Below are positions 3,934-61,812 of a stretch of 64,000 bases of DNA, one piece after another (positions within the stretch are counted from its first letter, which is position 1; each line of letters starts with the position of its first letter). Source of the stretch: Candidatus Shapirobacteria bacterium (GTDB taxonomy: Bacteria > Patescibacteriota > Microgenomatia > UBA12405 > BS750m-G30); contig JADHWP010000001.1 in the NCBI GenBank assembly GCA_016783425.1, positions 7,272-71,271 of the forward strand. Direction: 5' to 3'. A program made the translations under genes and the position numbers. Under the pieces are notes generated by a model. That model had not been told where the DNA came from. It saw only the letters and a program-made list of their open reading frames with translations, and searched no databases.

Positions 3934-3985
3934 TTGAAACTTGAGCTTTTATTCTACCATATTTGTTTGAGTTTAGAGTTTAGAT

Positions 3986-4030
3986 TGTCAACCTTAAAGG
4001 TTGAAGATCCAGTAACCTTTAAGGTTGACA
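3986..4030. repeat. Composite REP element: two TGTCAACCTT(T/A)AAGGTTGACA half-copies around a 10-bp insert (agatccagta)
   Basis: Same palindrome family as the copies at 14596, 15369, 19104, 35997 and 38406. Confidence 0.85.
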
Positions 4031-4121
4031 GAGCTGGCGGACTCGGGAGTAATATAATTTCTGGTATAATGATTTTAGAGGAGGAAATATCTTTATTTTA
4101 AGATAATCATAATATATCAAA

Positions 4122-14595: not shown

Positions 14596-14616
14596 AATGC
14601 AAATTGTCAACCTTAA
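14596..14616. repeat. REP element (21-bp perfect palindrome TGTCAACCTTAAAGGTTGACA) flanking the RAYT gene; a partial copy (agtcaacct) follows
   Basis: Exact palindrome; partner copy at 15369 on the other side of the transposase gene. Confidence 0.9.
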
Positions 14617-14652
14617 AGGTTGACAAGCTAGTCAACCTCGGGAGAATGCTAA

Positions 14653-19038: not shown

Positions 19039-19103
19039 TACTGCCAAGCTCCAAATTACAAATAACAAGTATTCCAAATCACCGCTTCTGGCGGGATCCT
19101 GCT

Positions 19104-19148
19104 TGTCAACCTTAAAGGTTGATGACCCGATAACCTTTAAGGTTGACA
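19104..19148. repeat. Composite REP element (half-copies around a 10-bp insert tgacccgata) in the rplJ leader region
   Basis: Exact reverse complement of the composite copy at 38406. Confidence 0.85.
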
Positions 19149-19152
19149 GCAC

Positions 19153-23296: not shown

Positions 23297-23448
23297 AAAA
23301 TCAAGTAAAATTACAAATAACAAATTGCAAGAAGCAAATAAATCACAATGATCAAATTTCAAAAAGGCAAAAATTTAAATCAGTTTGAAAAATTGGAAAT
23401 TGGTAATTGTTTGTTTCTTGGTGCTTGTAGTTTGGAGCTTGTTTAATA

Positions 23449-23874
23449 ATGGCTAAAAAAGTAAAAGCAATTGTTAAACTTAATCTTCCCGCGGGCGAGG
23501 CCACTCCCGGGCCGCCCGCCGGACCAATTTTGGGCCAGCACGGAGTGGCGATTATGGATTTTATTAACCAGTATAATACCGCCACCAAAGAGCAAAAGGG
23601 GAGCATTATTCCGGCCTTGCTTACCGTCTATGAGGATCGCACCTTTACTTTTGTGACTAAGCTTCCCCCGGTTTCCGCCTTAATCAAAAAGAAGCTAGGC
23701 CTGGAAAAGGGTTCGGCCGAAACTAAAAGAGAGAAAGTAGGCAGTTTAACTCAAGCTGATATTAAAGAAATTGCGAGTAAAAAAATGAAAGACCTGAATA
23801 CCAGTAATTTAGAAGTAGCAATTAAAATTATTACCGGAACTGCCAAAAGTATGGGGGTGGAGGTAGAAAGTTAA
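23449..23874 (+). CDS. rplK: 50S ribosomal protein L11
   Basis: 141 aa; PPAGPILGQHGVAIMDF signature. Confidence 0.95.
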   Translation: MAKKVKAIVKLNLPAGEATPGPPAGPILGQHGVAIMDFINQYNTATKEQKGSIIPALLTVYEDRTFTFVTKLPPVSALIKKKLGLEKGSAETKREKVGSLTQADIKEIASKKMKDLNTSNLEVAIKIITGTAKSMGVEVES

Positions 23875-23893
23875 AAGTTAAAAGTTAAAAGTT

Positions 23894-31183: not shown

Positions 31184-33748
31184 ATGAAGATTAAAGTTGA
31201 TCGAGAAATATTTGAAAAATGGCCTGATTTAAAAATTGGGGTAATGGTTGGTTTGGGGCTAAATAACACCGAAGCCAAACAAAAAAGTCTGGAGTTGCTG
31301 CGAGCAGAGGAAAAAAACCAGCAAAAGCTAATAAAGCTTGAAGAATTGGAGAATCAGGACTTTGTTCGAGCTTGGCGTCAGGTTTATCGTGATTTTGGCG
31401 CTTCACCGAAAAAGTATAAATCGTCAATTGAGGCTTTACTTACCAGGGTATTAACTGAAAAAGAATTACCAGATATTAATCCTTTGGTTAACTTTTATAA
31501 CTACCTTTCTTTAAAATATCATCTTCCTTTTGGAGGAGAGGATTTGGATAAAGTAAAAGGAGACGTTTCTCTTGACTTTGCCAAGGGCAGCGAGAAAGGT
31601 AAGTACATTGGTTCAGATAAAGTAGAGTCAGCCCTGCCCGGGGAAGTAATTTACCAAGATGAATTAGGTTTCATATGCCGAAGATTTAACTGGCGGGAAG
31701 CGGACCGAACCAAATTTACGCCCAAAACCAAAAACGCTATTTTAGTGGCCGAACTATTGCCTCTCGGCAAATCGGAAACACTACAAAAAGCAATTAAGGA
31801 ATTGACTGATTTAGTAGAAAAAGAATTAGGCGGAAAAGTAGCGGTGGCTGTTTTAGATAAACAAAATCCGGTTTTGGAATTTGATTTTGTTTCAGGAAGT
31901 AAATTAACAAGCGGGGACTTGGCCCTTGACAAAATGAAAAAAGTCGAGAAAAAAGAGATTATTGCTAAGTTTAAGCTGCCTACACTTATTACCCCTTTGC
32001 CTGAATGGCTGCCGGAGGAGCGGATAAAAAAGGCTCTTTATTTGGCTTGTGAGGAGCTGGGGAAAGGCTTGGTTTTAAAGGATGAAATTGAAGTTAAACA
32101 CCCGACTTTAGGGGGACACGGGGATTTTGCTTCCAATATTGCTTTGGTTTTAGCTAAAAAACTTAAAAAAAATCCAGGGGAAATAGCCAAAAATTTAGTT
32201 GAGAAAATTAAAGATCAGTCTTTAGATTGGGTTGGAAAAATTGAAACAGCCGGTCCTGGCTTTATCAATTTTTGGTTAAGCAAGGAATATTTATTTAAAC
32301 AAGCCCGGGGATTTTTGAAAGACAATTTTTTTAAAGAAAAGCTGGGGAAGGCGGAAGAGGGGAAAGTGGCAGTCATTGATTATTCCGCTCCTAATATTGC
32401 CAAATCTTTTGGGATTGGACATTTGCGTTCCACTAGCATCGGCCAAGCCATTTACAATCTTTATTCTTTTTTGGGTTGGGAAACTATTGGGGACAATCAT
32501 TTGGGAGACTGGGGAACCCAATTTGGAAAGCTTATTGTGGCGATAAAAAAATGGTGGCCAAAAGAGTTGCAGGAATTAACGGTTGAGGAGTTGGAAAAGC
32601 TATACGTTAAGTTTCACACGGAAGCTAAAAAAGACAAAAGCCTGGAAAATGAGGGTCGGGCTTGGTTTAAAAAGTTGGAGGACGGGGATCAGGAAGCAAA
32701 AGAGATTTGGCAAGTTTGTACGGACGTTTCTTTAAAAGAATTTAAGCGGATTTATGATTTATTGGGAGTAAGAATTGATTATGCTTACGGAGAGGCCTTT
32801 TATCATTTTGGCGGGTGGATGGAAAAAGTGCTGGCTGATTTAAAAAAGAGAAAGTTAGTCAAAAAAAGCCAGGGGGCGTTGGTAATTGAAATTCCGGAAA
32901 TAAAAGTGCCGGGAATGCTGGTCAAATCAGACGGAGGCACGACTTATCTTTTTCGGGATATGGCGACCATATTTTTTAGAATGGAAAAATGGAACCCGGA
33001 TTTGGTGATTTACGAAGTCGGGGCAGACCAGAAATTTCATTTTCAGCAGGTATTTGCCGCTTCTCAAAAAGCAGGATATATTGATAGCAAAAAACTAGTC
33101 CATGTTCCTCATGGGCTAATTCGCTGGAAGCATGGCAAGTTTTCCACCCGCAAAGGCGATACCATTCATTTGGAAGAAATTTTAAAAGAAGGAATTGAAA
33201 AAGCCTATCAAATAGTGGAAAAAAGCCAGACCAGCGAAGGCTTGAACAAAAGTGAAAAAATGAAAATTGCCAAGGCGGTCGGAATTGGAGGAGTGAAATT
33301 TAATGATTTAAAGCAGGAGCCGGAAAAAGACATTATTTTTGAGTGGGAAAAGATTTTAACCCTAGCAGGATATTCTGCTCCTTATCTCCAATATACCTAT
33401 GCTCGTTGTGCCTCGGTTTTAGCAAAAGCAGAGAATTTAAGTTTTGAAAAGATTTCTTTGAGTTCAGGTCTTGAGAAAGAAGAACTTTCCTTGTTGCGCA
33501 GCTTCTACCAGTTTCCAGAGGTAATTTTAATTTCTGCCAATAACTTCGCCCCTCACCTACTGGCGCAGTATTTATTTGATCTGGCGCAAAAGTTTAATCT
33601 TTTTTACCAAAAACACCGAATACTTTCAAACTCCAAACTTCAAACTTCAAACACTCAAGAATTTAGACTGTTTTTAACTAAGATTGCTGCTCAAGTTTTG
33701 AAAATGGGGTTGGAAATTTTAGGAATTGAAGTGCTGGAGAAAATGTAG
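31184..33748 (+). CDS. argS: Arginine--tRNA ligase with N-terminal B3/B4 tRNA-binding/editing-like domain fusion
   Basis: 854 aa; residues about 270-854 are ArgS (APNIAKSFGIGHLRST HIGH region, DALR C-terminus); residues about 1-260 resemble the PheT B3/B4 domain. Confidence 0.85.
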   Translation: MKIKVDREIFEKWPDLKIGVMVGLGLNNTEAKQKSLELLRAEEKNQQKLIKLEELENQDFVRAWRQVYRDFGASPKKYKSSIEALLTRVLTEKELPDINPLVNFYNYLSLKYHLPFGGEDLDKVKGDVSLDFAKGSEKGKYIGSDKVESALPGEVIYQDELGFICRRFNWREADRTKFTPKTKNAILVAELLPLGKSETLQKAIKELTDLVEKELGGKVAVAVLDKQNPVLEFDFVSGSKLTSGDLALDKMKKVEKKEIIAKFKLPTLITPLPEWLPEERIKKALYLACEELGKGLVLKDEIEVKHPTLGGHGDFASNIALVLAKKLKKNPGEIAKNLVEKIKDQSLDWVGKIETAGPGFINFWLSKEYLFKQARGFLKDNFFKEKLGKAEEGKVAVIDYSAPNIAKSFGIGHLRSTSIGQAIYNLYSFLGWETIGDNHLGDWGTQFGKLIVAIKKWWPKELQELTVEELEKLYVKFHTEAKKDKSLENEGRAWFKKLEDGDQEAKEIWQVCTDVSLKEFKRIYDLLGVRIDYAYGEAFYHFGGWMEKVLADLKKRKLVKKSQGALVIEIPEIKVPGMLVKSDGGTTYLFRDMATIFFRMEKWNPDLVIYEVGADQKFHFQQVFAASQKAGYIDSKKLVHVPHGLIRWKHGKFSTRKGDTIHLEEILKEGIEKAYQIVEKSQTSEGLNKSEKMKIAKAVGIGGVKFNDLKQEPEKDIIFEWEKILTLAGYSAPYLQYTYARCASVLAKAENLSFEKISLSSGLEKEELSLLRSFYQFPEVILISANNFAPHLLAQYLFDLAQKFNLFYQKHRILSNSKLQTSNTQEFRLFLTKIAAQVLKMGLEILGIEVLEKM

Positions 33749-36543: not shown

Positions 36544-36559
36544 AGTATTATATTATATC

Positions 36560-36628
36560 CAACTTGTCAGGATTTTGCAAGAGAGGTGTCAAGAAAAATA
36601 AGTCTCTGGACAATATACTATCAGTTAC
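36560..36628 (+). promoter_or_regulatory. Copy 1 of the shared upstream element (TGTCAGGATTTTGCAAGAGAGGTGTCAAGAAAAATAA) with putative promoter TTGCAA-17-ATAAGT
   Basis: Near-identical to copies at 38454 and 40526; 11-bp-phased TGTCAGG/TGCAAGA/TGTCAAG direct repeats. Confidence 0.6.
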
Positions 36629-38392
36629 ATGGGCAGACTGGAAAGAGGGGATTTAACACGGCCACTCCTCGTCATGATATCTGAACCTTCGTTCCATGAG
36701 GGAGAAAAAAGGCTGATTACTGGCCCTGGTGGAATGATTTTTGATATTGAAAGAACAAGGTCGGGTCTAAATGTTTTGAGTCGTCCCCAGCTTGAGGGAG
36801 CTCGTGGAGAACAGCTTTCTTATAATGAATCGAGCGAATCGTTTTCTCTTTTTTTTACTTATTCTAAACAGGGAGAGGGATACGTTCTTAATGAAGGCCA
36901 GGTGACCAACGGAGTTTTTTTCCGGGGCCAAGAACAGTCAGCGGTTATTTTTGCCGAAGTTACCCAAGGAGCTTTCGAGGAAGATGTTTCCTTGGGCGCA
37001 TTTCTCTATTTGCCTCCAAATTCAGTTCCTGATCAAGCGGTAAAAGATCTTTTTGGAGAAACAAGACTTTATGACCCGATAGAGTTAGAAGGAGTTCCTT
37101 TTAATCCCGTGGCTATCGAATTCACTGATTTAGAAGAAATATTTTCGCAGATAATTGACGAAAAATTAGTCGAAAAAATTAAGCCAATAGCCGAGCGGTT
37201 TTTAACTCAAAGAGAAGCGTTTATTGCTTCTCAAGTCAGTTTTCCTTTGGGGGTTGAAAAATTACTTACTGTTTCCGGCGGATCAGAACTTTTTGCTTCA
37301 TTTCCCGCTTTTCTTCTAACCAAGTTAGTCGAGCAGTTCAGAACAAGTGGCGCAGTACACTTATTTCAAGTCGAGAGTGTTTTAAAAACAGTTCTGGCAG
37401 GAGTAAAAGACCAAAAAGAAAAATGGGCCCTAGCCTCTTTTTTTTATAATCTATTTGGCAAAGGGCATTGTTTAGTCAGTAATTATGATCAGTATCAAGG
37501 AGGCGTTTCAGGATTGATAATAGACTTATTGGTAGAAACAGGGACACTTTCTTCTGGTGGAAGCATAGAGGCTATTTGGCGTGAGGGTTTTAGCGGAATG
37601 ACTCAAGCCGCTTTTACTTATTGGCTTGAGAGGCAATGGTTGAAAAGGGAGGAGGAGAGATTATTTACAAAGCAAGCCTTTTTTCATACTCCCCTAAGAG
37701 AGACACACGAGCCCTTGGATGGAGAATTATATGAAAGATGGCTTGATTTAGCTAATAAAGTGGGAAAAAAAGCGAGAAACAACGAAATTAATTGGCCTCA
37801 TTTTGCTAATAAACTGGCGGAACTAGCTTTGATGGGTAAATTTTATCCTGATGGAAATGTCCATTTTTTTCACTGGGGATTTGGCGTAGAAAATAAGAGA
37901 TATGCTGGTGATAGAGGGTTTTTTTCCAGAGAGATTTACCTTTTGACTAATCCTAATGGAGTGAGATTGGTTCTACCTTTGCCGCCGTCAGCCTTTTTGC
38001 CAGCTACTATTGAGATTGATTGGAGCAAAAGTGGAAAAGGGTGGTTAAATCCCGAGCTTTGTTTTTATTGCTGGGTTAAACCCGATGCGCCTTTTGATTA
38101 TAGTCAGGCTACTGCTGTTTCCTTTAATCAGTGGGTGGGGATCGGTGATTTTAAAAACTTTAGGCGGATAAGGCTCCCTTTGGGGCAAAAAAGGGGTGGC
38201 AATGTTGAAGCCTGGATCAGTCAAGGCTGGCAAATAGTTGAACAGTTTAGGGACAATGCAAGTGGCGCGATAATGTTATTGCTTCCTTTTAAAGAGAGGG
38301 AAGGCAAAGTAGCGGTTAATCAATTTTTAGATCTTACTAGTAAAAAGTATCCAGCTGAGCAATATTTTGAGGTTCCGGTAAATATTTATTAG
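36629..38392 (+). CDS. Hypothetical protein (587 aa), downstream of shared element copy 1
   Basis: Long ORF; no recognisable domain. Confidence 0.6.
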   Translation: MGRLERGDLTRPLLVMISEPSFHEGEKRLITGPGGMIFDIERTRSGLNVLSRPQLEGARGEQLSYNESSESFSLFFTYSKQGEGYVLNEGQVTNGVFFRGQEQSAVIFAEVTQGAFEEDVSLGAFLYLPPNSVPDQAVKDLFGETRLYDPIELEGVPFNPVAIEFTDLEEIFSQIIDEKLVEKIKPIAERFLTQREAFIASQVSFPLGVEKLLTVSGGSELFASFPAFLLTKLVEQFRTSGAVHLFQVESVLKTVLAGVKDQKEKWALASFFYNLFGKGHCLVSNYDQYQGGVSGLIIDLLVETGTLSSGGSIEAIWREGFSGMTQAAFTYWLERQWLKREEERLFTKQAFFHTPLRETHEPLDGELYERWLDLANKVGKKARNNEINWPHFANKLAELALMGKFYPDGNVHFFHWGFGVENKRYAGDRGFFSREIYLLTNPNGVRLVLPLPPSAFLPATIEIDWSKSGKGWLNPELCFYCWVKPDAPFDYSQATAVSFNQWVGIGDFKNFRRIRLPLGQKRGGNVEAWISQGWQIVEQFRDNASGAIMLLLPFKEREGKVAVNQFLDLTSKKYPAEQYFEVPVNIY

Positions 38393-38405
38393 TTATCTTA
38401 TTTGT

Positions 38406-38450
38406 TGTCAACCTTAAAGGTTATCGGGTCATCAACCTTTAAGGTTGACA
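38406..38450. repeat. Composite REP element (insert tatcgggtca), reverse complement of the 19104 copy
   Basis: Exact match in opposite orientation. Confidence 0.85.
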
Positions 38451-38453
38451 AGT

Positions 38454-38527
38454 ATTTGCCCTGTCAGGATTTTGCAAGAGAGGTGTCAAGAAAAATAAAA
38501 AGAGGTGGTTTACACTATAGGGCAAAT
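38454..38527 (+). promoter_or_regulatory. Copy 2 of the shared upstream element with conserved 5' UTR (AAGAGGTGGTTTACACTATA); inverted repeat ATTTGCCCT/AGGGCAAAT brackets it and overlaps the start codon
   Basis: 66 bp identical to copy 3; the IR arms could form a hairpin sequestering the ATG. Confidence 0.6.
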
Positions 38528-39458
38528 GAGGGAAATTCTTAGAAGAAAAGAATCGGGTAAAAAAGAAGTCAAATGGTCAGATGAGCTTTTGGCGGGAGCT
38601 ACAGGGATTGAGGGACAAGTGGCGGAATTAATAGCGGGAAGAGAATTAAAAAGATTTAGGTTGCCCCAAGCTTTAATCCAAGATTTTGGAGTTGCTTCCG
38701 CTTGGGCTTTAGAGGCTTTTCCTGGCTGTGAATCAGGGGTGGCTATTCATTGCTTTTGGCCTCAACTTGCTGAATTTGAAAATACGATTAGAAAAAAAGG
38801 AGGGGTTTATAGGTTGCGTCGTTTAATGCCTGAAATAATGCGAGCAAAATTATCCAAAAACCTTCGGGTTTGCAGTAGATTCGGCAGGGATCCAATAAAA
38901 TGGTCTGCTGAATTTTTAGTCGAAAATAGGGGCGCGCTTATACCCGAAATAGGAATGGAAATCAATCCTAAGGGAGAAGTGGATGAACTCTCTTTTTACC
39001 TTGATCTTGGAGAACTTGGTTTTTCTAAAAAAAATGCTTTTCCGAATCTGGTAGTTGATAAAAAAGGAAATGTGGAACTTCGCAGATGGCAGCCACGTGA
39101 TTGGCATTTTTCGGACGGCGAGTGGATTATTGAAGCTTATGATCCCCAAAACCCCAATCACACAAGCTCTTTAAAGGCAATAAAAGAAGGATTGCCAATG
39201 CTTCAATTTCTTTGGCCTTCTTTGCTGTATCCAAAATGGAAATTTGGCTGGGGTGATTTAATAATTAATGCCAATGAACCCGGTTCTTCTGATAGTTCAC
39301 CAACAGATGTGAGAATCAGCCGGTGGGCAGGAGTGGGGCAAAGCAGGCATCTTTTCGAGTTTTATACTTCTAGATCAGGGTGGAAATTAGAAAATAAGAT
39401 ATGGGATCAAAGAAGACGGTGGGGAAGAAGAATGGCCAGTGTTCATATAAATTTTTAA
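38505..39458 (+). CDS. Hypothetical protein (317 aa from GTG 38505, or 310 aa from ATG 38526)
   Basis: ORF downstream of shared element copy 2. Confidence 0.6.
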   Translation: MVYTIGQMREILRRKESGKKEVKWSDELLAGATGIEGQVAELIAGRELKRFRLPQALIQDFGVASAWALEAFPGCESGVAIHCFWPQLAEFENTIRKKGGVYRLRRLMPEIMRAKLSKNLRVCSRFGRDPIKWSAEFLVENRGALIPEIGMEINPKGEVDELSFYLDLGELGFSKKNAFPNLVVDKKGNVELRRWQPRDWHFSDGEWIIEAYDPQNPNHTSSLKAIKEGLPMLQFLWPSLLYPKWKFGWGDLIINANEPGSSDSSPTDVRISRWAGVGQSRHLFEFYTSRSGWKLENKIWDQRRRWGRRMASVHINF

Positions 39459-39644: not shown

Positions 39645-40079
39645 CTATTTTTGTGACTCTAAAAATTCCTCTATTTTTTGGCAGTATTTAATAATATCAC
39701 CCAATTCGTATTTAATTGCCTGGTAGACTTTTTCTCTGGCTACTGATAGATATTCATGGACTAAAATATTTCTCATTCCGGCCATTTTAGCCAGTTTTTG
39801 AGCTAGTTTTTTATCAATCACTCCTAATTTGTAAAGAATGAGGAATAATTCCTTGTTTTCTCGTTTTGGTTTTTCCATTGCTGCTTGGCTGACAATGTGT
39901 GCGGCAATGTCCAGGCAGGCCTGGATAGCGACTTGCAAACGATATTCAGCGGCATCAGCAATATCAGCGCTGGCAAGAAAACTGGCCTCATTTGTTTTTG
40001 CGGCTGTTTCCTTTAACAGCTGAAGCCGCTTCCTGATTGCCGCAAGACGATCTCTAATACGCGAATGGTCGAGCATCAA
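39645..40079 (-). CDS. HEPN-domain toxin (HepT/DUF86-like)
   Basis: 144 aa; R-x4-HEY motif (RNILVHEY); overlaps the upstream MNT gene by 26 bp. Confidence 0.75.
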   Translation of the reverse strand: MMLDHSRIRDRLAAIRKRLQLLKETAAKTNEASFLASADIADAAEYRLQVAIQACLDIAAHIVSQAAMEKPKRENKELFLILYKLGVIDKKLAQKLAKMAGMRNILVHEYLSVAREKVYQAIKYELGDIIKYCQKIEEFLESQK

Positions 40080-40506
40080 TTACTCCTTTTCTAGCTAAAT
40101 TAGCGATTTGCAACTCATATTCCTGGTAAAAGTTTTTCAGGTCAAAATAATTACGAGAGATTTTAAGCTCAAAATCAACTCTTTGGTACGACTCTTTTCC
40201 CAAAAGGAGTTTTCCCTGGCTGATAACCCGAAAAGCAAAGGGCAGTGAAACAGCGTCCAGACTTTGAGTTTCGACTTTCTTTTTAAGCAGTTTAGAGAGT
40301 TGATTGGCTAGTTTGATTTGAGCGAATAAATTTTGATCTAATTTTGATTTTTTCTTATACAGAATTGCCAAATCCAGATCAGAATTTTTTTTGGCTTTAC
40401 CAACAGCAAACGAACCGTAAAGATAAACGGCGATTATTCCCTTTTGTTTTTTAAGAAAATTCTTGATTTGGTCAATTTGCATTTTAGTTAAATTCATTTG
40501 CTTCAT
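40054..40506 (-). CDS. Minimal nucleotidyltransferase antitoxin (MntA-like)
   Basis: 150 aa; YLYGSFAVGKAKKNSDLDLAIL (GS...DxD) motif. Confidence 0.75.
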   Translation of the reverse strand: MKQMNLTKMQIDQIKNFLKKQKGIIAVYLYGSFAVGKAKKNSDLDLAILYKKKSKLDQNLFAQIKLANQLSKLLKKKVETQSLDAVSLPFAFRVISQGKLLLGKESYQRVDFELKISRNYFDLKNFYQEYELQIANLARKGVIDARPFAY

Positions 40507-40525
40507 TCTAGCATATAGTTTGTCT

Positions 40526-40598
40526 ATTTGCCCTGTCAGGATTTTGCAAGAGAGGTGTCAAGAAAAATAAAAAGAGGTGGTTTACACTATAAGATAAG
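40526..40598 (+). promoter_or_regulatory. Copy 3 of the shared upstream element plus conserved 5' UTR
   Basis: Identical to copy 2 over about 66 bp. Confidence 0.6.
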
Positions 40599-41471
40599 AT
40601 GGCTAGAATAGAAGCAGAAGGCAAAGAAGTTAGGGGTCAAATAGAAGAGCTACTTAGACAAGGGAGAGAATGGTATCCGGTTTTTGGATTGGGCGGAGAG
40701 TTAGGAGAAGCCGTGGTTTTAAGTGGCAGGGGGGACTATTCTCCAATTGATGAGCTAGAAAATGTGACGGAAACTTGTTTAAGTTATGGTCTTTGGGCTG
40801 ATCTTGAAAAGGTAATTATCGGAAAATTGCTCTGCTTGACCAGTCTTGATAATAAAGAAGTTATTCAAGAAGCATTTGAATTAACAGCCAGTCTTTTTTA
40901 TCGGGGGGCTGGTGAAGAAACAGAAGGGAAAATTGAGAAACTTATGTCTTTGAGGGTGATCCTGGAAGATCAATGTGATAAAGAAAAGGTTCTTGATTTA
41001 GCTGGTCTTTTGTCTTCTTATCTTCCCGGAAGAGGGTTTTGGGCCGAGCCCAATTTACTTCAGGCTTACATTGGAAGGAAGCCCGCCTCTATAAATGTGA
41101 AAATAAAAGATGGCAGTCCGGTTAATTTAGAGGCCAGTTTTTGGGTAAAAATGGAAAAGGAAGCGGACAAAGTAAAACCTATTTACACGCTAAGCTACCC
41201 AATTAGCCTTTTTCCTGGTCTTTACACTCCTAGCGATTCAGGAGATTTGATATTATTGGATGAAAGCTTATGCTTGCGGTCTGCAAATGACACGGAGTTG
41301 GAGTTGTTAAGGTTGGCTCGGAATACAGAAGCTAGTTGGGAAGAAAGAGAAAAGCTAGAGTATGAGTATCGACTGCCGCTTCCTCAATTAATTACCAGGG
41401 CTTCAATTGAAAAAATGTTAACAACAGGAGAACCACCTTTTGGCTTAGTGGCTGATTTAATAGACAAATGA
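40599..41471 (+). CDS. Hypothetical protein (290 aa), downstream of shared element copy 3
   Basis: ORF; no recognisable domain. Confidence 0.6.
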   Translation: MARIEAEGKEVRGQIEELLRQGREWYPVFGLGGELGEAVVLSGRGDYSPIDELENVTETCLSYGLWADLEKVIIGKLLCLTSLDNKEVIQEAFELTASLFYRGAGEETEGKIEKLMSLRVILEDQCDKEKVLDLAGLLSSYLPGRGFWAEPNLLQAYIGRKPASINVKIKDGSPVNLEASFWVKMEKEADKVKPIYTLSYPISLFPGLYTPSDSGDLILLDESLCLRSANDTELELLRLARNTEASWEEREKLEYEYRLPLPQLITRASIEKMLTTGEPPFGLVADLIDK

Positions 41472-42769: not shown

Positions 42770-44644
42770 ATGAGCAAGAAAAAAATTGATCCGACTGATT
42801 TTATTGAAATTGGCCGGCTTAACGGTGGCGGCCGCAAGCTTATCGTGGATTTGGATGAAATTGGGGAAATTATTGTTTCCAAAGGGAGCAAGGACGATGC
42901 CAATAAAATCAATACCCCCGAGGGTACTTCTTTTTCCTTGTCCGAATATTTAAAAAAAGAGTACGCTTTACACAAGGTTTTTTCAAAAGATGTAGCCGAA
43001 GCTCATCGCAAGGGAGACATTAAACTGCAAAAACTCCAGTTTATTGACCGACCCTATTGTTCCGGTCAGGGGTTGGAGTATATTAAAAAATTTGGCTTAA
43101 CTAAGTACGCTTCTTTTGCGGCGGTCAAGCCGGCCGGCCACATTGACGCTTTAATTGACCACATGATGCGCATGACCATGGCCTTAAGGGCCCATTTTGG
43201 CGGGGCGGTTGGCTGGGATGCGCTTAATATGTATATGGCCCCTTATCTTGGCGGCATGGGGGATCGGGAGATAAGACAAATTGCCCAAAGAATTATTTAC
43301 CAGTTCAACCAAACCGTTGGCCCGCACGGCGGCCAGCCGGTTTTTTCGGATATTAATCTTTATTGGGAGATTCCCGATCATTTTGCCAGGGTGCCGGCGA
43401 TTGGGCCAAGGGGGGAGTTTACCGGCCGAATGTACAAAGATTATGAAAAAGAAGCCCAGGCTTTAGTTTGGCAGCTTTTGAATATTTATAAAAGAGGAGA
43501 CGCTAAAGGCAAGCCTTTTTTCTGGCCCAAACCCAATGTTCATATCACTACCAGGTTTTGGCAAACTCCGGGACACGAGGAATTCTTAGAGCATGTTTGC
43601 GGCGTGGCCGCTAAAATGGGCAATCCCTATTTTATTTTTGACCGCGGTTCAGTGGCTAAAATTTCCGAATGCTGCCGCTTGCAGTTTGAGCTGTCGAAAG
43701 ACGATTTAAAAGAAGCCAAAGAGCCCTGGAAAATGCGCTACGCCGCTTGTCCTTATCTACCCGTAAACTTGCCCCGGGTAGCTTACGAGGCTAATCATGA
43801 TGAAAAAAAGTTTTTCCAAATTTTAGGCGCGCGCCTGGAGCTTTTGACCAAGGCTCATCTTCAAAAAAGCCGATTTTTAAAAAAGCTTTTGGAAATGGGG
43901 CCAACCGGGCCCTTGGGCATGCTGACCTTAACAAGCAACGGGGACAAAGAGCCGTATTTACGATTTGACAAAATGCCCTATATGAATGCGGTTGGCGGGC
44001 TTTCCGATGCGGTTAAGTTTCATCTTGGCAAGGCCCTGCATGAATCAGACGAGGCCTTGAAATTCGGTTTAAGAGTAACTGCTTTTATGAAGAAGAAAAC
44101 AGAAGAAGAAGGTAAAAAGGCGGGTTTAAAAATTCTTCTTGACCAGTCTCCGGCGGAATCAACCATGTATCGGTTTGCCAAAATGGATTTGGCCCAGTTT
44201 CCCAAACAAGCCAGGCAAATTGTTCATGGTGATCTTAAAAGCGGGCAAGTGTATTACACTAACTCTTCTCAAATTGATGTGGATGCATCTTTGGATGTTT
44301 TTGAACGGATTGAACTGGAGGGCCGATTTCATCCTTTAATGCAAGGCGGGGCCTTAACCCATATTTGGCTGGGCGAAAACTTGCCTTCGGCTAAATCTTT
44401 GGCCAGTTTAGTTAAAAAAGTCTTTTTTAAAACCCAGAATACTCAAGTCGCTTTTTCTCCGGAATTTACTTTGTGTTCTGATTGCGAGCAGACCAGCCGG
44501 GGCAAAAGAGAGAGTTGTCCTTTTTGCGGTAGCAAAAAAGTGGACTGGGTCACCCGGATTACCGGCTATTATACTTTTGTGAAGCAGTGGAATAAGGGTA
44601 AACTAGGGGAGTTAAAGGATCGGAAGAAAAACAGGATTAAATAA
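42770..44644 (+). CDS. nrdD: Anaerobic ribonucleoside-triphosphate reductase (class III), paralog 1, no ATP-cone
   Basis: 624 aa; active-site ISECCRL, C-terminal Zn-ribbon CSDCEQ...CPFCG and glycyl-radical motif RITGYY. Confidence 0.85.
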   Translation: MSKKKIDPTDFIEIGRLNGGGRKLIVDLDEIGEIIVSKGSKDDANKINTPEGTSFSLSEYLKKEYALHKVFSKDVAEAHRKGDIKLQKLQFIDRPYCSGQGLEYIKKFGLTKYASFAAVKPAGHIDALIDHMMRMTMALRAHFGGAVGWDALNMYMAPYLGGMGDREIRQIAQRIIYQFNQTVGPHGGQPVFSDINLYWEIPDHFARVPAIGPRGEFTGRMYKDYEKEAQALVWQLLNIYKRGDAKGKPFFWPKPNVHITTRFWQTPGHEEFLEHVCGVAAKMGNPYFIFDRGSVAKISECCRLQFELSKDDLKEAKEPWKMRYAACPYLPVNLPRVAYEANHDEKKFFQILGARLELLTKAHLQKSRFLKKLLEMGPTGPLGMLTLTSNGDKEPYLRFDKMPYMNAVGGLSDAVKFHLGKALHESDEALKFGLRVTAFMKKKTEEEGKKAGLKILLDQSPAESTMYRFAKMDLAQFPKQARQIVHGDLKSGQVYYTNSSQIDVDASLDVFERIELEGRFHPLMQGGALTHIWLGENLPSAKSLASLVKKVFFKTQNTQVAFSPEFTLCSDCEQTSRGKRESCPFCGSKKVDWVTRITGYYTFVKQWNKGKLGELKDRKKNRIK

Positions 44645-46809
44645 TGCCCAGCGAAATCAGCAAATACAATAATGGCAATGGCAATGGTAATGGCTTAACG
44701 ACCAAGCAGGCCAAATACCTAGAGGGCGCCAAAAAACATGGGGCAACGGATACAATGTTCTTTGTTTCTACTTCAGACGAGGCTTTAAAAGAGTGGGATG
44801 TAACCCAAATTGCCAAGCGCTTGATTATTGAAACGGGTATGGGAGAAAAGTTGGCAATGAGGATTGCCAAGGTGGTAGAGGAGAAGATTTTGGCGGCCAA
44901 GCTAAAACATGTTTCTACTAACCTTATTCGGGAATTAACCAATGCCGAGCTTCTTTTCCGGGGATTGGAAAAATATTATGACAAGCATGTGCGCTTAGGA
45001 GTGCCCATTTATGATGTTCACCAGATGCTCACCGAACAAAACAGAATTAATGCCAATGTGCCTCATAATACCGAAGCCACTAATTTGGCTTTAGCCCGGA
45101 ATATTAAAAAAGAGTATGCCTTGCGCCGGGTTTTTTCTAAAGACGTCGCTCAAGCTCATGCCAAGGGTGATCTTCACCTTCACGATTTGGATTTTGTGGA
45201 TCGGCCCTATTGTTGTGGGCAGTCAATTGAGTATGTAAAGAAATATGGCCTGGATATTGCCTCCAGTTTGGCGGTAGCCAAGCCAGCCAAATATGCCACT
45301 ACTTTGGTATTGCAGATAATTAAATTGGCTTCGATGCTCCAGGTTCATTTTGCGGGGGCGATTGGCTTTGATGCCGTTAATCTTTTTCTGGCTCCTTATT
45401 TAACTGGTTTTGGCAAAAAAGAATTAAAGCAATTGGCTCAAACTCTTCTTTTTGAATTTAATATGCAAAATATAGCCCGGGGCGGACAGGCGATTTTTTC
45501 GGACATTAATCTTTATTGGGAAGTGCCTGATCATTTTGCCGATACCCCGGCAATTGGGCCGGGGGGTAAATATACGGGTAAAAAATATCAGGATTATCAA
45601 AAAGAATCGCAAGAATTTGTTAAAGCCATTTTTGAGGTGTATTTAGAGGGAGACGGAGCGGGACGGCCTTTTTTCTGGCCTAAGCCTAATTTACATATCA
45701 CCGAGAAATTTTGGCAAACTCCGGGTCATCAAGGGTTTTTGCATCTGGCTTCTAAAGTAGCGGCCATTCGGGGCAATACTTATTTTGTTTTAGACCGGGG
45801 AGGCACAGCCCGAATCTCCGAATGCTGCCGACTGGCCTTTAATCTTAAAAAATCCGACCTTGAAGATGCTAAAAAGCCCTGGAAAATGCGTTACAGCGCG
45901 ATGCAGAATGTTTCTTTGAATTTGCCCCGTATGGCTTACAAAGCCAAGGGAAGGACTGATAAGTTATTTGAGGAAATTGAGCGGGGGATGGAGCTGTTGG
46001 CCAAGGCTCACCAACAAAAGAGGCGGTTTATCAAAAGACTTTTAGATATGGGCCTGCAAGGGCCCTTGGCCGCGCTGACTACCCGCCAGCTGGATGATAA
46101 TGAATCTTACTACCGCTTTGATAAGGCCAAGTTTTTAGTTGGTGTTTTTGGGGTTAACGAAACGGTTGAGTATTGCCTGGGAAAGCAGATGCACGAAAGC
46201 GATCAAGCGCTTAAACTGGGCCTAAAGATTGTTTCCCAAATGAAGAAAAAAGCGGAAATTTTAAGTAAGCGGGATAAAATGGAGTATGTTTTGGAGCAAA
46301 CTCCAGCGGAAGGGTTAACTTACCGTTTTGCTAAATTAGATAAGCGCTTTTATCCCAAAGAGGCCAAAAAAGTGATTAAGGGTAATTGGGAGGAAGATTA
46401 TATTTACTACACCAATTCCACCCAGCTTAATGTGTCCGAACCTATTGACCCTATTGAAAGAGTAACTAAAGAAGGTCTTTTTCATCCTCTAATTGACGCT
46501 GGAGCAATCAGCCATATTTGGCTCGGGGAGCAAAATCCGGATCCAAAGGCGATTGCCAGTTTTGTGAAAAAAACCTTTGATCACACCCAAAACGGCTTAA
46601 TTGCTTTTTCCCCCGAGTTTACGATTTGTGATTCTTGTATGGCAACCAGCCGGGGACTAAAAGATAACTGCCCCAAATGCGGTTCTGAAGAGGTAGACGG
46701 AGTTACTCGAGTGACTGGTTTTTATTCTCGCGTTAGCCGTTGGAATAAAGGAAAAATAGGCGAGCTAAAAGATCGGTATCGAAACGCGGGAAAGTTTCGT
46801 GATTCGTAA
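44644..46809 (+). CDS. nrdD: Anaerobic ribonucleoside-triphosphate reductase (class III), paralog 2, with N-terminal ATP-cone-like domain and NGNGNGNG repeat
   Basis: 721 aa; same motifs (ISECCRL; CDSCM...CPKCG; RVTGFY) plus an about 100-aa N-terminal ATP-cone-like region; tandem aatggc repeats at 44680-44703. Confidence 0.85.
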   Translation: MPSEISKYNNGNGNGNGLTTKQAKYLEGAKKHGATDTMFFVSTSDEALKEWDVTQIAKRLIIETGMGEKLAMRIAKVVEEKILAAKLKHVSTNLIRELTNAELLFRGLEKYYDKHVRLGVPIYDVHQMLTEQNRINANVPHNTEATNLALARNIKKEYALRRVFSKDVAQAHAKGDLHLHDLDFVDRPYCCGQSIEYVKKYGLDIASSLAVAKPAKYATTLVLQIIKLASMLQVHFAGAIGFDAVNLFLAPYLTGFGKKELKQLAQTLLFEFNMQNIARGGQAIFSDINLYWEVPDHFADTPAIGPGGKYTGKKYQDYQKESQEFVKAIFEVYLEGDGAGRPFFWPKPNLHITEKFWQTPGHQGFLHLASKVAAIRGNTYFVLDRGGTARISECCRLAFNLKKSDLEDAKKPWKMRYSAMQNVSLNLPRMAYKAKGRTDKLFEEIERGMELLAKAHQQKRRFIKRLLDMGLQGPLAALTTRQLDDNESYYRFDKAKFLVGVFGVNETVEYCLGKQMHESDQALKLGLKIVSQMKKKAEILSKRDKMEYVLEQTPAEGLTYRFAKLDKRFYPKEAKKVIKGNWEEDYIYYTNSTQLNVSEPIDPIERVTKEGLFHPLIDAGAISHIWLGEQNPDPKAIASFVKKTFDHTQNGLIAFSPEFTICDSCMATSRGLKDNCPKCGSEEVDGVTRVTGFYSRVSRWNKGKIGELKDRYRNAGKFRDS

Positions 46810-46848
46810 TTCGTTATTGGTTAATCGTAATTCGTTATTGGTTAATTG
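46803..46848 (+). repeat. Tandem direct repeat (cgtaattcgttattggttaat x2) at the 5' border of the four-helix-bundle gene
   Basis: Two exact 21-bp units; related inverted units at 47245-47300 and inside nrdG at about 48185-48215. Confidence 0.7.
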
Positions 46849-46858
46849 TGATTTATTG

Positions 46859-47236
46859 ATGAGAGACAAAATTAATAATTTTAGCGATTTAGATGCTTGG
46901 AAAATAAATCACAGGCTAGTTTTGGATGTTTACAAAACTACTAAAGATTTTCCAAAAGATGAGCGCTATGGCATTATTAATCAGTTAAGACGGGCGGCAA
47001 GTTCGATTACAGCCAATGTTGCCGAAGGTTGGGGGAGGTATCATTACGCTGATCGAATAAGGTTTTATTATAATGCTCGCGGATCTAGTTGTGAGGTTCA
47101 AAATTTCCTTGTTTTAAGTAGAGACTTGGGGTATTTAAGTTCAATAGATTATCAAAAATTGTACCTGCTGGCGACAAAAGGTCTTAAGATTATTAATGGT
47201 TTAATTCGATCTGTGGAAAAACTTAAAATTAAATAA
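46859..47236 (+). CDS. Four-helix-bundle protein (23S rRNA IVS-protein-like family)
   Basis: Start at MRDKINNF; ...RRAASSITANVAEGWGRY...ARGSSCEVQ signature of the family. Confidence 0.7.
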   Translation: MRDKINNFSDLDAWKINHRLVLDVYKTTKDFPKDERYGIINQLRRAASSITANVAEGWGRYHYADRIRFYYNARGSSCEVQNFLVLSRDLGYLSSIDYQKLYLLATKGLKIINGLIRSVEKLKIK

Positions 47237-47244
47237 ATTGCGGT

Positions 47245-47300
47245 TAATGTTTGACGAGTAGCGTTTAGCGAATAACGTTTAACGATTAGCGAATAACGGA
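47245..47300 (+). repeat. Repeat cluster (tagcgaataacg x2) at the 3' border of the four-helix-bundle gene, inverted relative to the 5' repeats
   Basis: Shares cgttattcg-type units with 46803-46848. Confidence 0.6.
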
Positions 47301-47308
47301 ATAAGAAA

Positions 47309-47596
47309 ATGACTCTAAAACTGTTTACTAAAAAAAATTGTCCCAAATGCCCTGCGGCTAAGGCGCTCATTTGCGAGCTTAAAGCTCAAAAGTTAAAACT
47401 CAATCCGCCAGCTGGCGGAGAAAAATTAAAAGTTGAAAATTACAATGTTGAAGACATTGACGGTATGGCCGAGGCCGCTTTTTATCAGGTAATGGCTACT
47501 CCTACTATTTTAATCTGTGATGATAGGGGTAAGGAGTTGAGAGGTTGGCGGGGGGAAGTTCCATCCCGGAAAGAAATTTTAGCCAAAGTCAAGTGA
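47309..47596 (+). CDS. nrdH: NrdH-like glutaredoxin (CPKC redox motif) with in-frame [10 protein letters not shown] insertion
   Basis: 95 aa; thioredoxin fold with CxxC; 23-bp insert at 47402-47424 identical to that in rplL. Confidence 0.7.
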   Translation: MTLKLFTKKNCPKCPAAKALICELKAQKLKLNPPAGGEKLKVENYNVEDIDGMAEAAFYQVMATPTILICDDRGKELRGWRGEVPSRKEILAKVK

Positions 47597-48357
47597 AAAT
47601 TGGCGGGTACCTTCCCACTTCTTTAATCGAATGGCCGGGCAAACTTTCGGCCATTATTTGGACAATAGGGTGTAATTTCCGCTGTCCTTTTTGCCATAAT
47701 AAAGACCTAGTTAAAATTTCAAAACTCAAAAACCAATTTCCAGACAAATATCAAGTTTTAAATTCCAAATTACAAGTGTTTAAACAAAAAGAGATCTTAA
47801 CAGATTTAAAAAAAAGGAAAGATTGGATTGATGGACTAGTAATTTCCGGTGGCGAGCCAACCATTCAGTCCAATTTAGTTGATTTTTGCGTCCGGGTTAA
47901 AAAAATTGGCTTAGAAATTATGCTGGAAACCAATGGCAGTCAGCCAGAGATGATCAAAAAGCTGATCAAAAATAACCTGGTTGATTTTTGGGCGATGGAT
48001 TTTAAGACAGTTTGGGAAAACTATTTTCAAGTAACTGGTTTTAAAAAAATAGCCGAGATTAAAAAGTCAATTAATTTAATTCTAGCTTTCGGTAAGCCCC
48101 TGGAATTGCGAACGACAATTGTTCCCGGGATTCATGACGAAAAAATACTGCTGGCCATGGCCAGGGAGCTAAGGGAGTCATTTAAATCACGATTAACGAA
48201 TAACGATTTGCGATTTGCGAAGCCAAAATGGAAATGGCAAAACTTCCAGCCCAAAAACACCCTTGATCCGGCCTTTGAAAAAATCAAACCGTATTCAGAA
48301 GGGCAGATAAAAAAACTAAAGAATTTAGTTTTTGATATTTTTCCTGTGGTAGAATAA
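47592..48357 (+). CDS. nrdG: Anaerobic ribonucleotide reductase activating protein (radical SAM)
   Basis: Likely GTG start at 47592 (VKIGGYLPTSLIEWPG); CNFRCPFCHN radical-SAM cluster motif. Confidence 0.8.
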
Positions 48358-50292: not shown

Positions 50293-50362
50293 CTCTTCGC
50301 TCTTAAATTTCTTGTCCCTAAATACTAGATACTATATACTAACTACTAGCTACTTAAAACCC

Positions 50363-50433
50363 AGGCCCGTAGTGAAATGGTATCATCAGGGTCTCCAAAA
50401 CCCTTGTTTCAGGTTCAAATCCTGACGGGCCTG
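50363..50433 (+). tRNA. tRNA-Trp (anticodon CCA); CCA not encoded
   Basis: Acceptor aggcccg/cgggcct; anticodon stem agggt/accct, loop ctccaaa; T-arm tcagg-ttcaaat-cctga. Confidence 0.75.
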
Positions 50434-61547: not shown

Positions 61548-61665
61548 CTATTCAAATTCCAAATCCTAATATCTAAATTCTAGACAAATTCTAAATCCCA
61601 ATTTTTTAAACTTATTTAGAGTTTAGCATTTTTGTAAATTGAAAATTGTAAATTGTAAATTTTCT

Positions 61666-61742
61666 TTTGGTGTCTCCGAAGGGAATCGAACCCCCAGTTC
61701 TTCCTCCGCAGGGAAGTGTTTTATCCGTTAAACTACGGAGAC
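61666..61742 (-). tRNA. tRNA-Arg (anticodon GCG)
   Basis: Acceptor gtctccg/cggagac; anticodon stem cttcc/ggaag, loop ctgcgga; GGTTCGATTCC T-arm; CCA encoded. Confidence 0.8.
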
Positions 61743-61812
61743 GAGTTTAGTTAAAAGTTAAAAGTGAAAAGTTAATAGTTAAAAAATTCACTCTGGGAAT
61801 ATTTTATCATAA

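Follow-up and report, generated by a model that had tools for sequence, protein, structure and literature searches.

The DNA analysed here, called the window below, is a stretch of 64,000 nucleotides from a Candidatus Shapirobacteria bacterium (contig JADHWP010000001.1). It contains an operon for class III ribonucleotide reductase (RNR) with five co-oriented, closely packed genes: nrdD-A, nrdD-B, a four-helix-bundle (4HB) gene, the gene of an nrdH-like redoxin and nrdG (Table 1). The 4HB gene is enclosed by two inverted arrays of heptamers, and gene and arrays together are best read as a selfish element of the type of the intervening sequences (IVSs) of rRNA, carried here on the mRNA of the operon (probability about 0.6 for this reading as a whole). 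As to its parts, the insertion of an IVS-type element is quite probable, and processing by RNase III, which is argued from analogy, has in our estimate somewhat less than an even chance. An IVS-type element in an operon mRNA would be a new form of a known kind of element, and the family-wide link between 4HB genes and heptamers is the part most worth following up.

The 4HB protein matches PF05635 at 2.8e-33 (114.8 bits, cut-off 33.8) and TIGR02436 at 1.3e-31 (109 bits, cut-off 24), in agreement with an earlier note on this DNA which had placed a gene of the rRNA-IVS-protein family between the second nrdD and nrdH. An identical protein is on record as 'four helix bundle protein [Candidatus Shapirobacteria bacterium]'. 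The closest match in the PDB is 2GSC (XCC0516 of X. campestris, 1.5e-16), a homopentamer of four-helix bundles (PMC4990558). The polar residues E35, Q42, S49, N53, E56, R60, S76 and E79 are invariant in the family and R44 and R45 are nearly so. The 21-bp tandem repeat previously described upstream of this gene does exist as two exact copies (46805-46825 and 46826-46846; zero chance matches across 100 shuffles), but the true period of the left array is 7 (TRF: 7.0 copies, 46796-46844) and the 21-bp repeat is three heptamers and no separate kind of repeat. The inverted units reported downstream are likewise present: the right array (47254-47298; TRF period 7, 6.4 copies) is inverted with respect to the left one, and the arms are 77% complementary over 43 nt. 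Moreover, the related unit that had been noticed inside nrdG is a solo array, 88% complementary to the left array over 33 nt and including a 21-mer match with 3 mismatches (0 expected). It repeats, in inverted orientation, the inner end of the left arm and lies in frame in a length-variable linker, SRLTNNDLRFAK, which is longer than the linker of the relatives.

The duplex of left and right arms has a predicted energy of -42.1 kcal/mol, compared with -15.5 +/- 4.5 in random windows, and that of the left arm with the array inside nrdG reaches -42.0 kcal/mol. In the predicted RNA fold of positions 46780-47320, the minimum free energy structure and the centroid both pair the arms around the open reading frame (ORF), with z = -3.2. 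An ORF between pairing terminal inverted repeats, with tandem heptamers 5' of it, is the make-up of an IVS element. No promoter or terminator consensus was found on the + strand within the cassette, consensus matches being no more frequent than by chance, and the gene has the orientation of the operon; the cassette would therefore be read as part of the nrd mRNA. On such a transcript the arrays are predicted to pair into an imperfect stem of about 45 bp enclosing the ORF together with its start and stop codons, and the 4HB start codon would be sequestered in it. By analogy with rRNA IVSs this stem could be a substrate of RNase III, by which the cassette RNA would be excised and the operon transcript split. 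Excision of this kind would make the insertion tolerable and may limit the translation of the 4HB gene. At the DNA level the element appears, from comparison among loci, to have spread as one unit of gene and arms, and solo arrays such as that inside nrdG may have been left behind by it. No RNase III signature was found in the window, which is uninformative for a 64-kb piece.

The evidence for an insertion comes from comparison with related Patescibacteria, for which eleven loci had enough context (the window and L001-L004, L021, L081 and L163-L166). In nine of them (L001-L004, L021, L163-L166) the slot occupied in the window by the 4HB gene is empty of it. The ATG of nrdH follows the nrdD-B stop after 2-25 nt, with no array, in L001 and L004; the gap is 0-13 nt in L163, L165 and L166; a NUDIX gene lies there in L164; and the slot of L002, L003 and L021 has no 4HB match. 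NrdD-B ends in ...RF* in the relatives and in ...GKF-RDS* in the window, where the last three codons and the stop (RDS*) come from the left array of the cassette. This difference delimits the insertion to about 46797-47302 (~505 nt) and places it precisely after the final sense codon of nrdD-B and before the original stop of that gene. In addition, L081 has a 71%-identical 4HB gene flanked by arrays of TCGTNAT type in another slot, between nrdH and nrdG. Since these operon slots hold unrelated small genes in relatives (DUF1653, NUDIX and a cupin-like ORF), the nrd operon tolerates insertions. These comparisons support the view that the 4HB gene and its repeats behave as an inserted cassette. 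The small mobile cassette proposed earlier is upheld as far as insertion goes, with nine empty slots and a different slot in L081, but its mobility is something we infer from presence and absence and the arrays are not private to it.

Inverted heptamer arms are a family-wide trait of 4HB genes. The sample consisted of 80 metagenome loci whose 4HB relatives are 38-62% identical, which together with the window and L081 gave 89 4HB genes, and periodicity was scored in the 125-nt flanks of the 76 having both flanks. The best period-7 score averaged 21.7 in the upstream and 22.0 in the downstream flanks, background windows giving 13.1, and periods 4-6 and 8-10 were at background. The 95th percentile of the background was exceeded by 80% of the flanks on each side and on both sides in 71% of the 76 genes, which answers affirmatively the question raised by the earlier note of whether such repeats accompany other 4HB genes. 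Junctions scoring at least 22 made up 61% of those of 4HB genes and 14% of the others on the same contigs (odds ratio 9.4, p = 2e-21), and 2.1% in 4HB-free control loci (939 kb). According to the position profile, the arrays span the stretch between about -45 and the ATG on one side and that between the stop codon and about +35 on the other, typically with 4-5 units per arm (range 3 to 11) and a median gap of 6-7 nt to the ATG or stop codon. The start or stop codon is often inside a unit, e.g. GAATTATG ... TAATTCATAATTC. The right consensus unit is the reverse complement of the left one at a distance of 0-1 of 7 in 27 of 42 cassettes, and the mean left-right reverse-complement distance is 1.24, as against 3.27 between loci and 3.43 in direct orientation. 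The unit sequences are diverse among elements, yet they track protein similarity (rho = 0.28). In 60 of 68 cases the two neighbours of the 4HB gene are both on its strand, where about 60% would be expected because adjacent genes are co-oriented 77% of the time. rRNA was absent from all 40 of the 4HB loci scanned. With its 36,784 clusters at 50% identity (E<=0.001), which occur in unrelated contexts, PF05635 is a large family, so that the pattern concerns many genomes.

Viral contigs (L172-L208, IMG/VR) also have inverted heptamer arrays with 4HB relatives, including GC-rich units (GGCTGTT/AACAGCC); 17 of 35 score at least 20 on both sides of the 4HB gene, and a crude motif scan found no ORF resembling a reverse transcriptase within 3 kb of it. 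The period of 7 might have been explained by a supply of stop codons in all three frames; this was rejected, as only 43% of upstream and 25% of downstream arrays supply them. Some PF05635 representatives have been called as long ORFs in which the 4HB domain is fused at one end (for instance P0252 with 887 aa, P0363 with 628 aa and P0360 with 502 aa), as might be expected if gene callers read through arrays without stops.

The wide dispersion of the family bears on the explanation that the RNR operon has in the 4HB protein a subunit of its own, dedicated to an accessory or regulatory role. The gene is co-oriented and tightly packed in the operon, and a related gene occurs in the nrd operon of L081, as would be expected of such a subunit. 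However, 4HB is absent from 9 of the 11 related operons and takes another slot in L081, the family's 36,784 clusters are found in unrelated contexts, and DUF1653, NUDIX and cupin-like genes fill the same slots in relatives. We consider a subunit of this kind highly improbable.

Several observations weigh against the reading of the cassette as an IVS-type element. No transposase was found, the 4HB gene being the sole ORF in the element; set against the empty sites of L001 and L004, the junctions have no target-site duplication; and identical copies of recent origin were not found either, pairs on the same contig being 68-77% identical. The stem of the cassette is imperfect, with its arms complementary at 77% of positions. 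Among the family, a few cassettes have units of 8 nt, and the arms of one are direct instead of inverted. Arrays also occur without the 4HB gene, at rplK/rplA, in tRNA spacers and in the nrdH and nrdG loops of relatives. On the side of the operon itself, the KLQK sequence of NrdD-A (see below) makes the substrate binding of this enzyme only putative. Five contigs of the same species are 99.9% identical and carry the cassette without indel, which is no evidence either way on variation in array copy number.

Heptamer arrays form here a genome-wide repeat class of tandem 7-nt units found at operon junctions, in ORFs and as inverted pairs. The number of period-7 arrays per 100 kb is about 21 in the 4HB loci, 12.5 in the window, 5.7 in the nrd loci of relatives and 0.53 in the control loci. 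The window has 8 such arrays per 64 kb, some 24 times the control density, and none at periods 5, 8 or 10; across the locus sets, periods 5 and 10 are essentially absent. In the window such arrays are placed before rplK, where rplK meets rplA (AGTTAAA x4 across the stop codon), between tRNA-Ala and tRNA-Trp, and to either side of tRNA-Arg(gcg). The arrays away from 4HB are at 23386-23435, 23862-23892, 33625-33669, 50311-50363, 61622-61673 and 61741-61792. In operons without a 4HB gene, arrays lie in frame inside variable coding loops of nrdH (L001, L021, L163) and nrdG (L021, L166), where the gain or loss of one 7-nt unit would shift the frame. These coding-loop arrays are at 4453-4508 in L001, 12042-12104 and 13126-13184 in L021, 10062-10115 in L163 and 10842-10917 in L166. 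Pairs of left and right arrays with no gene between them, as if a cassette minus its ORF, were found in L102 (1925-2014) and L155 (3314-3548). In L081 a solo array of TCGTNAT type (2157-2222) forms the 3' end of nrdD-A, making the protein about 24 aa longer. The L081 junction array was considered as a gene-less hairpin; it folds no better than shuffles (z = 0.07) and is classed as a solo array.

Since arrays also occur without the gene, part of the association between 4HB and arrays could reflect a genome-wide repeat process. Cyanobacterial short tandemly repeated repetitive (STRR) sequences are genome-wide heptanucleotide arrays of this sort. In Xanthomonas, GGGAATC forms 186 arrays, mostly of 4 units; convergent pairs number 70 between core operon genes (groES/groEL and atpA/atpG, for example), purL has some arrays within it, and many pairs are gene-less (PMC4692102). 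Nostoc has a similar class of arrays with GGGGAYT (PMC4692102), and in Beggiatoaceae many TAACTGA repeats end beside a start codon (PMC4679880). The arrays described here resemble all of these in their 7-nt units, about four per array, in their position at core-operon junctions and sometimes in ORFs, in the frequency of convergent inverted pairs and in often ending by a start codon; the pairs of L102 and L155 in particular resemble the Xanthomonas inverted pairs, which are spaced 21-67 nt. They differ in bracketing a 4HB gene and in their AT-rich units. In both papers the arrays are taken for G-quadruplex or translational-control repeats, and PF05635 genes go unmentioned (zero occurrences). 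Nevertheless XCC0516, the gene of 2GSC and thus the structural match of the 4HB protein in the window, has a GGGAATC x4 array over its start codon (PMC4692102, S2 Table A, row 15). In the open literature no general link between PF05635 and heptamers was found beyond the Coxiella IVS, subscription papers and database comments being outside the search.

The main rival explanation holds that the arrays are simple repeats made by replication slippage throughout the genome, like GGGAATC, TAACTGA and STRR, which are independent of the 4HB gene and no part of a 4HB element; the gene would merely sit in, or prefer, intergenic spots rich in arrays. This would explain the densities of 12.5 in the window and 5.7 in the nrd loci against 0.53 in the control, with many arrays far from any 4HB gene, the arrays in the nrdH and nrdG loops of L001, L021, L163 and L166, whose operons are without 4HB, and the 186 arrays of Xanthomonas, where many gene-less inverted pairs stand between operon genes (PMC4692102). 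It does not explain why the empty sites of L001 and L004 are array-free, nor the odds ratio of 9.4 relative to other junctions of the same contigs. Moreover, the arms are reverse-complementary to each other, they abut the start and stop codons, and array similarity follows protein similarity (rho 0.28). We therefore regard independent, slippage-made arrays as unlikely, although they are the alternative to be taken most seriously.

The IVS-type reading finds its closest precedent in the 23S IVS of Coxiella burnetii, in which an S23p (PF05635) ORF goes together with a terminal stem of 28 bp that RNase III cleaves in vitro (PMC4990558). Two to four tandem GACAGAT heptamers precede this ORF, their number being variable among strains (PMC4990558). 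The cassette is like the ORF-bearing 23S IVSs of Coxiella and Leptospira in its PF05635 ORF and in terminal inverted repeats forming a long stem, and it shares with the Coxiella IVS the tandem heptamers directly 5' of the ORF. It differs in its host, which is the mRNA of a protein-coding operon and not helix 45 of 23S rRNA (Rfam recognized only tRNAs and no rRNA in the window), in that both arms are multi-unit heptamer arrays, and in that its stem is a predicted one. With elements of the repetitive extragenic palindrome (REP), bacterial interspersed mosaic element (BIME) and miniature inverted-repeat transposable element (MITE) types, the cassette has in common that it is small, lacks a transposase, lies between co-transcribed genes and can form a hairpin, and gene-less array pairs exist as well. 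Unlike them, it carries a conserved protein gene and its heptamer arms differ between elements.

The most interesting alternative is a protein that recognises the tandem units. The 4HB pentamer would bind the arrays in the manner of TRAP, about one unit per subunit, and the arrays would be sites of protein recognition and not only an RNase III stem; the protein could in this way govern its own translation, host-operon processing or array propagation. In accordance with this, 2GSC and Avd are homopentamers (PMC4990558; PMC10053308), the arms have 4-5 units here and 4 in Xanthomonas, the unit sequence co-varies with the protein and the family has invariant polar residues. On the other hand, the units range from 3 to 11, units of 8 nt occur, and the correlation is modest and would be expected from simple co-inheritance too. 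Binding of the arrays by the pentamer is, in our judgement, distinctly improbable.

It was also considered whether the 4HB gene could be the Avd gene of a diversity-generating retroelement (DGR), or the remnant of one. CPR (candidate phyla radiation) genomes are rich in DGRs, which counts in favour of this origin. The 4HB protein also matches PHROG 3206, 'Avd protein of DGR', at 8e-9, and PF05635 is an Avd-like family, Avd itself being homopentameric (PMC10053308); the fold family, a pentameric one, is shared with the Avd of DGRs. The cassette differs from a DGR in being without reverse transcriptase or template/variable repeats among the ORFs and the region scanned. No Pfam family of reverse transcriptases was found in 26 of the 45 ORFs of at least 180 aa in the window; these 26 include all such ORFs within about 10 kb of the cassette. 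The only repeats of at least 40 nt near the cassette reflect the similarity of the nrdD paralogs, and there is no pair resembling a template and a variable repeat. These two findings make a DGR very unlikely, the lowest we would rate any of these explanations. A reading as a defence system was rejected since PADLOC gave no match.

A wider interpretation may be put forward very tentatively, and we think it more likely wrong than right by a good measure. PF05635 genes and heptamer arrays would be the two halves of one widespread, unrecognised genetic system; separately, the NrdD pair could be a heteromer, as discussed below. Such a system would comprise autonomous cassettes as well as gene-less and solo arrays seeded through operons, tRNA spacers and coding loops, and the pentamer, by recognising some 4-5 tandem units, would bring about their processing or spread. 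The 23S IVSs, the 'G-quadruplex' heptamers of Xanthomonas and Nostoc, TAACTGA and the STRRs would then be special cases. PF05635 has had no assigned function since its discovery in rRNA intervening sequences in the 1990s, and over-represented bacterial heptamer repeats have been described but left unexplained (PMC4692102, PMC4679880). The inverted arms on most free-standing members, the co-orientation in operons and the array of XCC0516 lead to one testable hypothesis, either of RNA processing or of recognition of the repeats by the protein. In practical terms, the arrays account for ORF calls that read through, for altered C-termini of host proteins (NrdD-B here, NrdH and NrdD-A in L081) and for odd low-complexity loops in NrdH and NrdG.

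The operon in which the cassette lies is itself unusual in having two nrdD genes. As stated in the earlier note, both are full-length and head to tail, and the profile matches are above the curated cut-offs (26.2 bits for PF13597 and 326 for TIGR02487): NrdD-A scores 417 and 367.5 bits and NrdD-B 476 and 437 bits, respectively. The TAA stop of nrdD-A and the ATG start of nrdD-B have one base in common. The two proteins are 51% identical in a gapless alignment across 587 aa. The database relatives of NrdD-A form a group restricted to Patescibacteria, of about 57 clusters at 57-78% identity and all of about 620-650 aa, and the next matches (at most 55% identity) are the NrdDs of about 700 aa of Desulfobacterota, Methanomassiliicoccales and others. 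In a neighbour-joining tree clade A is monophyletic, and the B copies of CPR form another group, beside the enzymes of Desulfobacterota type; mean identity is about 50% between A and B and 53-55% between B and the outgroup. The order nrdD-A, nrdD-B, nrdH, nrdG is kept in 11 of 11 loci. Separate clades and a kept gene order indicate that NrdD-A and NrdD-B are, by sequence, an old, selected and lineage-conserved gene pair and not a recent one, which settles the choice posed earlier between duplication and distinct clades. A recent tandem duplication and an assembly artefact are both ruled out by the 51% identity, the separate clades and the 11 loci. A seemingly truncated nrdD-B in a contig of the same species (L167, 8129-8228) turned out to be a scaffold gap of 100 N, where contig L171 also ends.

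Invariance of residues was judged in 21 A, 8 CPR-B and 20 outgroup sequences. In NrdD-A numbering, the invariant residues are C97 (PYC, bottom-face), C301, C302 and R303 (ECCR/CCR), E463 (PAE motif), the radical G599 and C569, C572, C583 and C586 of the Zn ribbon. C97 aligns with C125 of the NrdD of Thermotoga maritima (TmNrdD); the cysteines of CCR are equated with those of its SCCR (C329/C330) by motif alone, as the pairwise alignment does not reach that stretch. The NrdD2 subtype, which uses a redoxin, has been defined by a third active-site Cys together with a Glu, and the SCCR cysteines are essential in T. maritima NrdD (PMC4493059). Here the CC pair is present, E463 is invariant and the operon has an ORF of thioredoxin fold (47309-47596). 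On this signature, which fits the redoxin gene in the operon, both copies are classed as NrdD2-type, putatively redoxin-dependent paralogs.

That both copies look functional, as had been suggested, holds for the radical chemistry only. The Cys, Gly-radical and Zn-ribbon residues are invariant, but at the HxHD motif, the site of triphosphate binding (of the substrate) in P. copri NrdD (PMC11226230), NrdD-A of the window has KLQK, as compared with HLHD in NrdD-B and YLHD in T. maritima NrdD. In clade A the fourth position is always Lys and the first and third positions vary. Phosphate binding by NrdD-A may therefore differ, with its radical chemistry residues kept; KLQK is a deviation and not a proof of inactivity.

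Compared with the known NrdD2 RNRs of Neisseria bacilliformis and Thermotoga maritima type, the enzymes described here are alike in the CC(R) motif, the bottom-face Cys, the active-site Glu and the thioredoxin-fold gene in the operon. They differ in always being two tandem paralogs, one of which has no N-terminal domain and an invariant Lys for the Asp of HxHD (KLQK in this genome). In the literature searched no account of such a paired NrdD arrangement was found. NrdD-A and NrdD-B, being always paired, could form a heteromeric class III RNR, and the conservation of a translationally coupled pair in genomes of roughly 1 Mb suggests a division of labour or a heteromer. NrdD-B of the window is 81-83% identical to those of L001 and L004 and 57% to a second B type in L002, L003 and L081; the NrdD-A proteins of the latter three are nonetheless 76-78% identical to that of the window, so that the A and B trees are incongruent. 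This suggests the replacement or recombination of one paralog inside the operon. The two B types are also distinguished by other features: B1 (window, L001, L004) has HLHD, a long N-terminal tail and the NG repeat, and B2 (L002, L003, L021, L081) has HLHK.

The N-terminal extension of NrdD-B had been described as an ATP-cone-like domain, and the outcome is mixed. PF03477 matches at E=0.01 and 16.8 bits over aa 41-109, so that the profile check proposed in the earlier note came out negative, the gathering cut-off being 25.8 bits; some homologous NrdDs of about 700 aa carry a precomputed PF03477 match. An AlphaFold2 model from 11 N-termini has four confident helices at residues 50-118 and a beta-hairpin cap segment of low confidence. 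A Foldseek search of this model against the PDB gave nothing at E<=0.001, but cone proteins head the sub-threshold list, namely NrdR, P. aeruginosa NrdA and S. thermophilus NrdD (2.0 A over 77 columns). The canonical ATP-cone motif is V-x-K-R-D-G. At this place NrdD-B has FVSTSDE, T and S standing for the K and R of the motif. We call the domain divergent ATP-cone-like, with nucleotide binding only putative. The tandem aatggc repeat reported before it is confirmed as four copies of AATGGC; the corresponding sequence is NGNGNG in L001 and NGKNGSG in L004 and its copy number thus differs. It sits in an N-terminal tail modelled with low confidence, and we see no further significance in it.

Table 1. 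Positions in the window of the genes, domains and repeat arrays of the nrd operon
Feature	Position	Strand	Basis
nrdD-A, class III RNR catalytic subunit, no N-terminal domain, 624 aa	42770..44644	+	PF13597 1.4e-124, TIGR02487
nrdD-B, class III RNR catalytic subunit with N-terminal extension, 721 aa	44644..46809	+	PF13597 2.7e-142, TIGR02487
AATGGC x4 encoding NGNGNGNG, NrdD-B N-terminal tail	44671..44694	+	TRF period 6, 4.0 copies
Divergent ATP-cone-like region, NrdD-B aa 41-109	44764..44970	+	PF03477 E=0.01, 16.8 bits
Cassette left arm, ~7-8 heptamers (TTCGTNA type), including two exact 21-nt copies	46796..46855	+	TRF, repeat tools
Four-helix-bundle (4HB) gene, 125 aa, PF05635 / TIGR02436 / Avd-like family	46859..47236	+	profile matches
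Cassette right arm, ~6-7 heptamers, reverse complement of left-arm type	47254..47307	-	inverted repeat, TRF
nrdH-like thioredoxin-fold redoxin, 95 aa, CPKC motif	47309..47596	+	PF13192 1.2e-6; TIGR00411 under its cut-off
nrdG, class III RNR activase, radical SAM (S-adenosylmethionine)	47593..48357	+	TIGR02495 173.6 bits, cut-off 131
Solo heptamer array within nrdG	48183..48221	-	complementarity to left arm

Two of the gene starts in Table 1 differ from those of the ORF lister. The start of the 4HB gene is, on the support of homology, ATG 46859, the listed GTG 46799 falling inside the repeat. For nrdG the start is most likely GTG 47593, which overlaps the nrdH stop as GTGA, instead of the listed TTG 47545, in view of this overlap and of an alignment with relatives beginning MKIAGYL. 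By Pfam and NCBIfam profiles this last gene is NrdG2. The redoxin gene is conserved at the nrdH position in every related locus. Downstream of nrdG, L163-L166 and L081 have a conserved ORF of about 115 aa and a DUF8128/TraG-like ATPase of about 780 aa; in the window a PHP phosphoesterase and a DedA/VTT protein are found there instead.

Other repeats were observed in the window. A 67-nt direct repeat occurs at 36556-36622, 38453-38519 and 40525-40591, two copies being 100% identical and the third 73%. Each copy is placed just upstream of a + strand ORF without Pfam match (36629-38392, 38505-39458 and 40599-41471), and the repeat looks like a shared promoter or leader of a set of unannotated genes directly upstream of the nrd operon. 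Among these ORFs there is a HepT/MNT toxin-antitoxin pair on the minus strand (39645-40506). In addition, a 47-nt palindromic repeat, TTGTCAACCTTAAAGGTTGA...TCAACCTTTAAGGTTGACA, is present in four copies of 62-100% identity (3985-4031, 14604-14650, 19103-19149 and 38405-38451) and may represent a terminator, operator or REP-like element.

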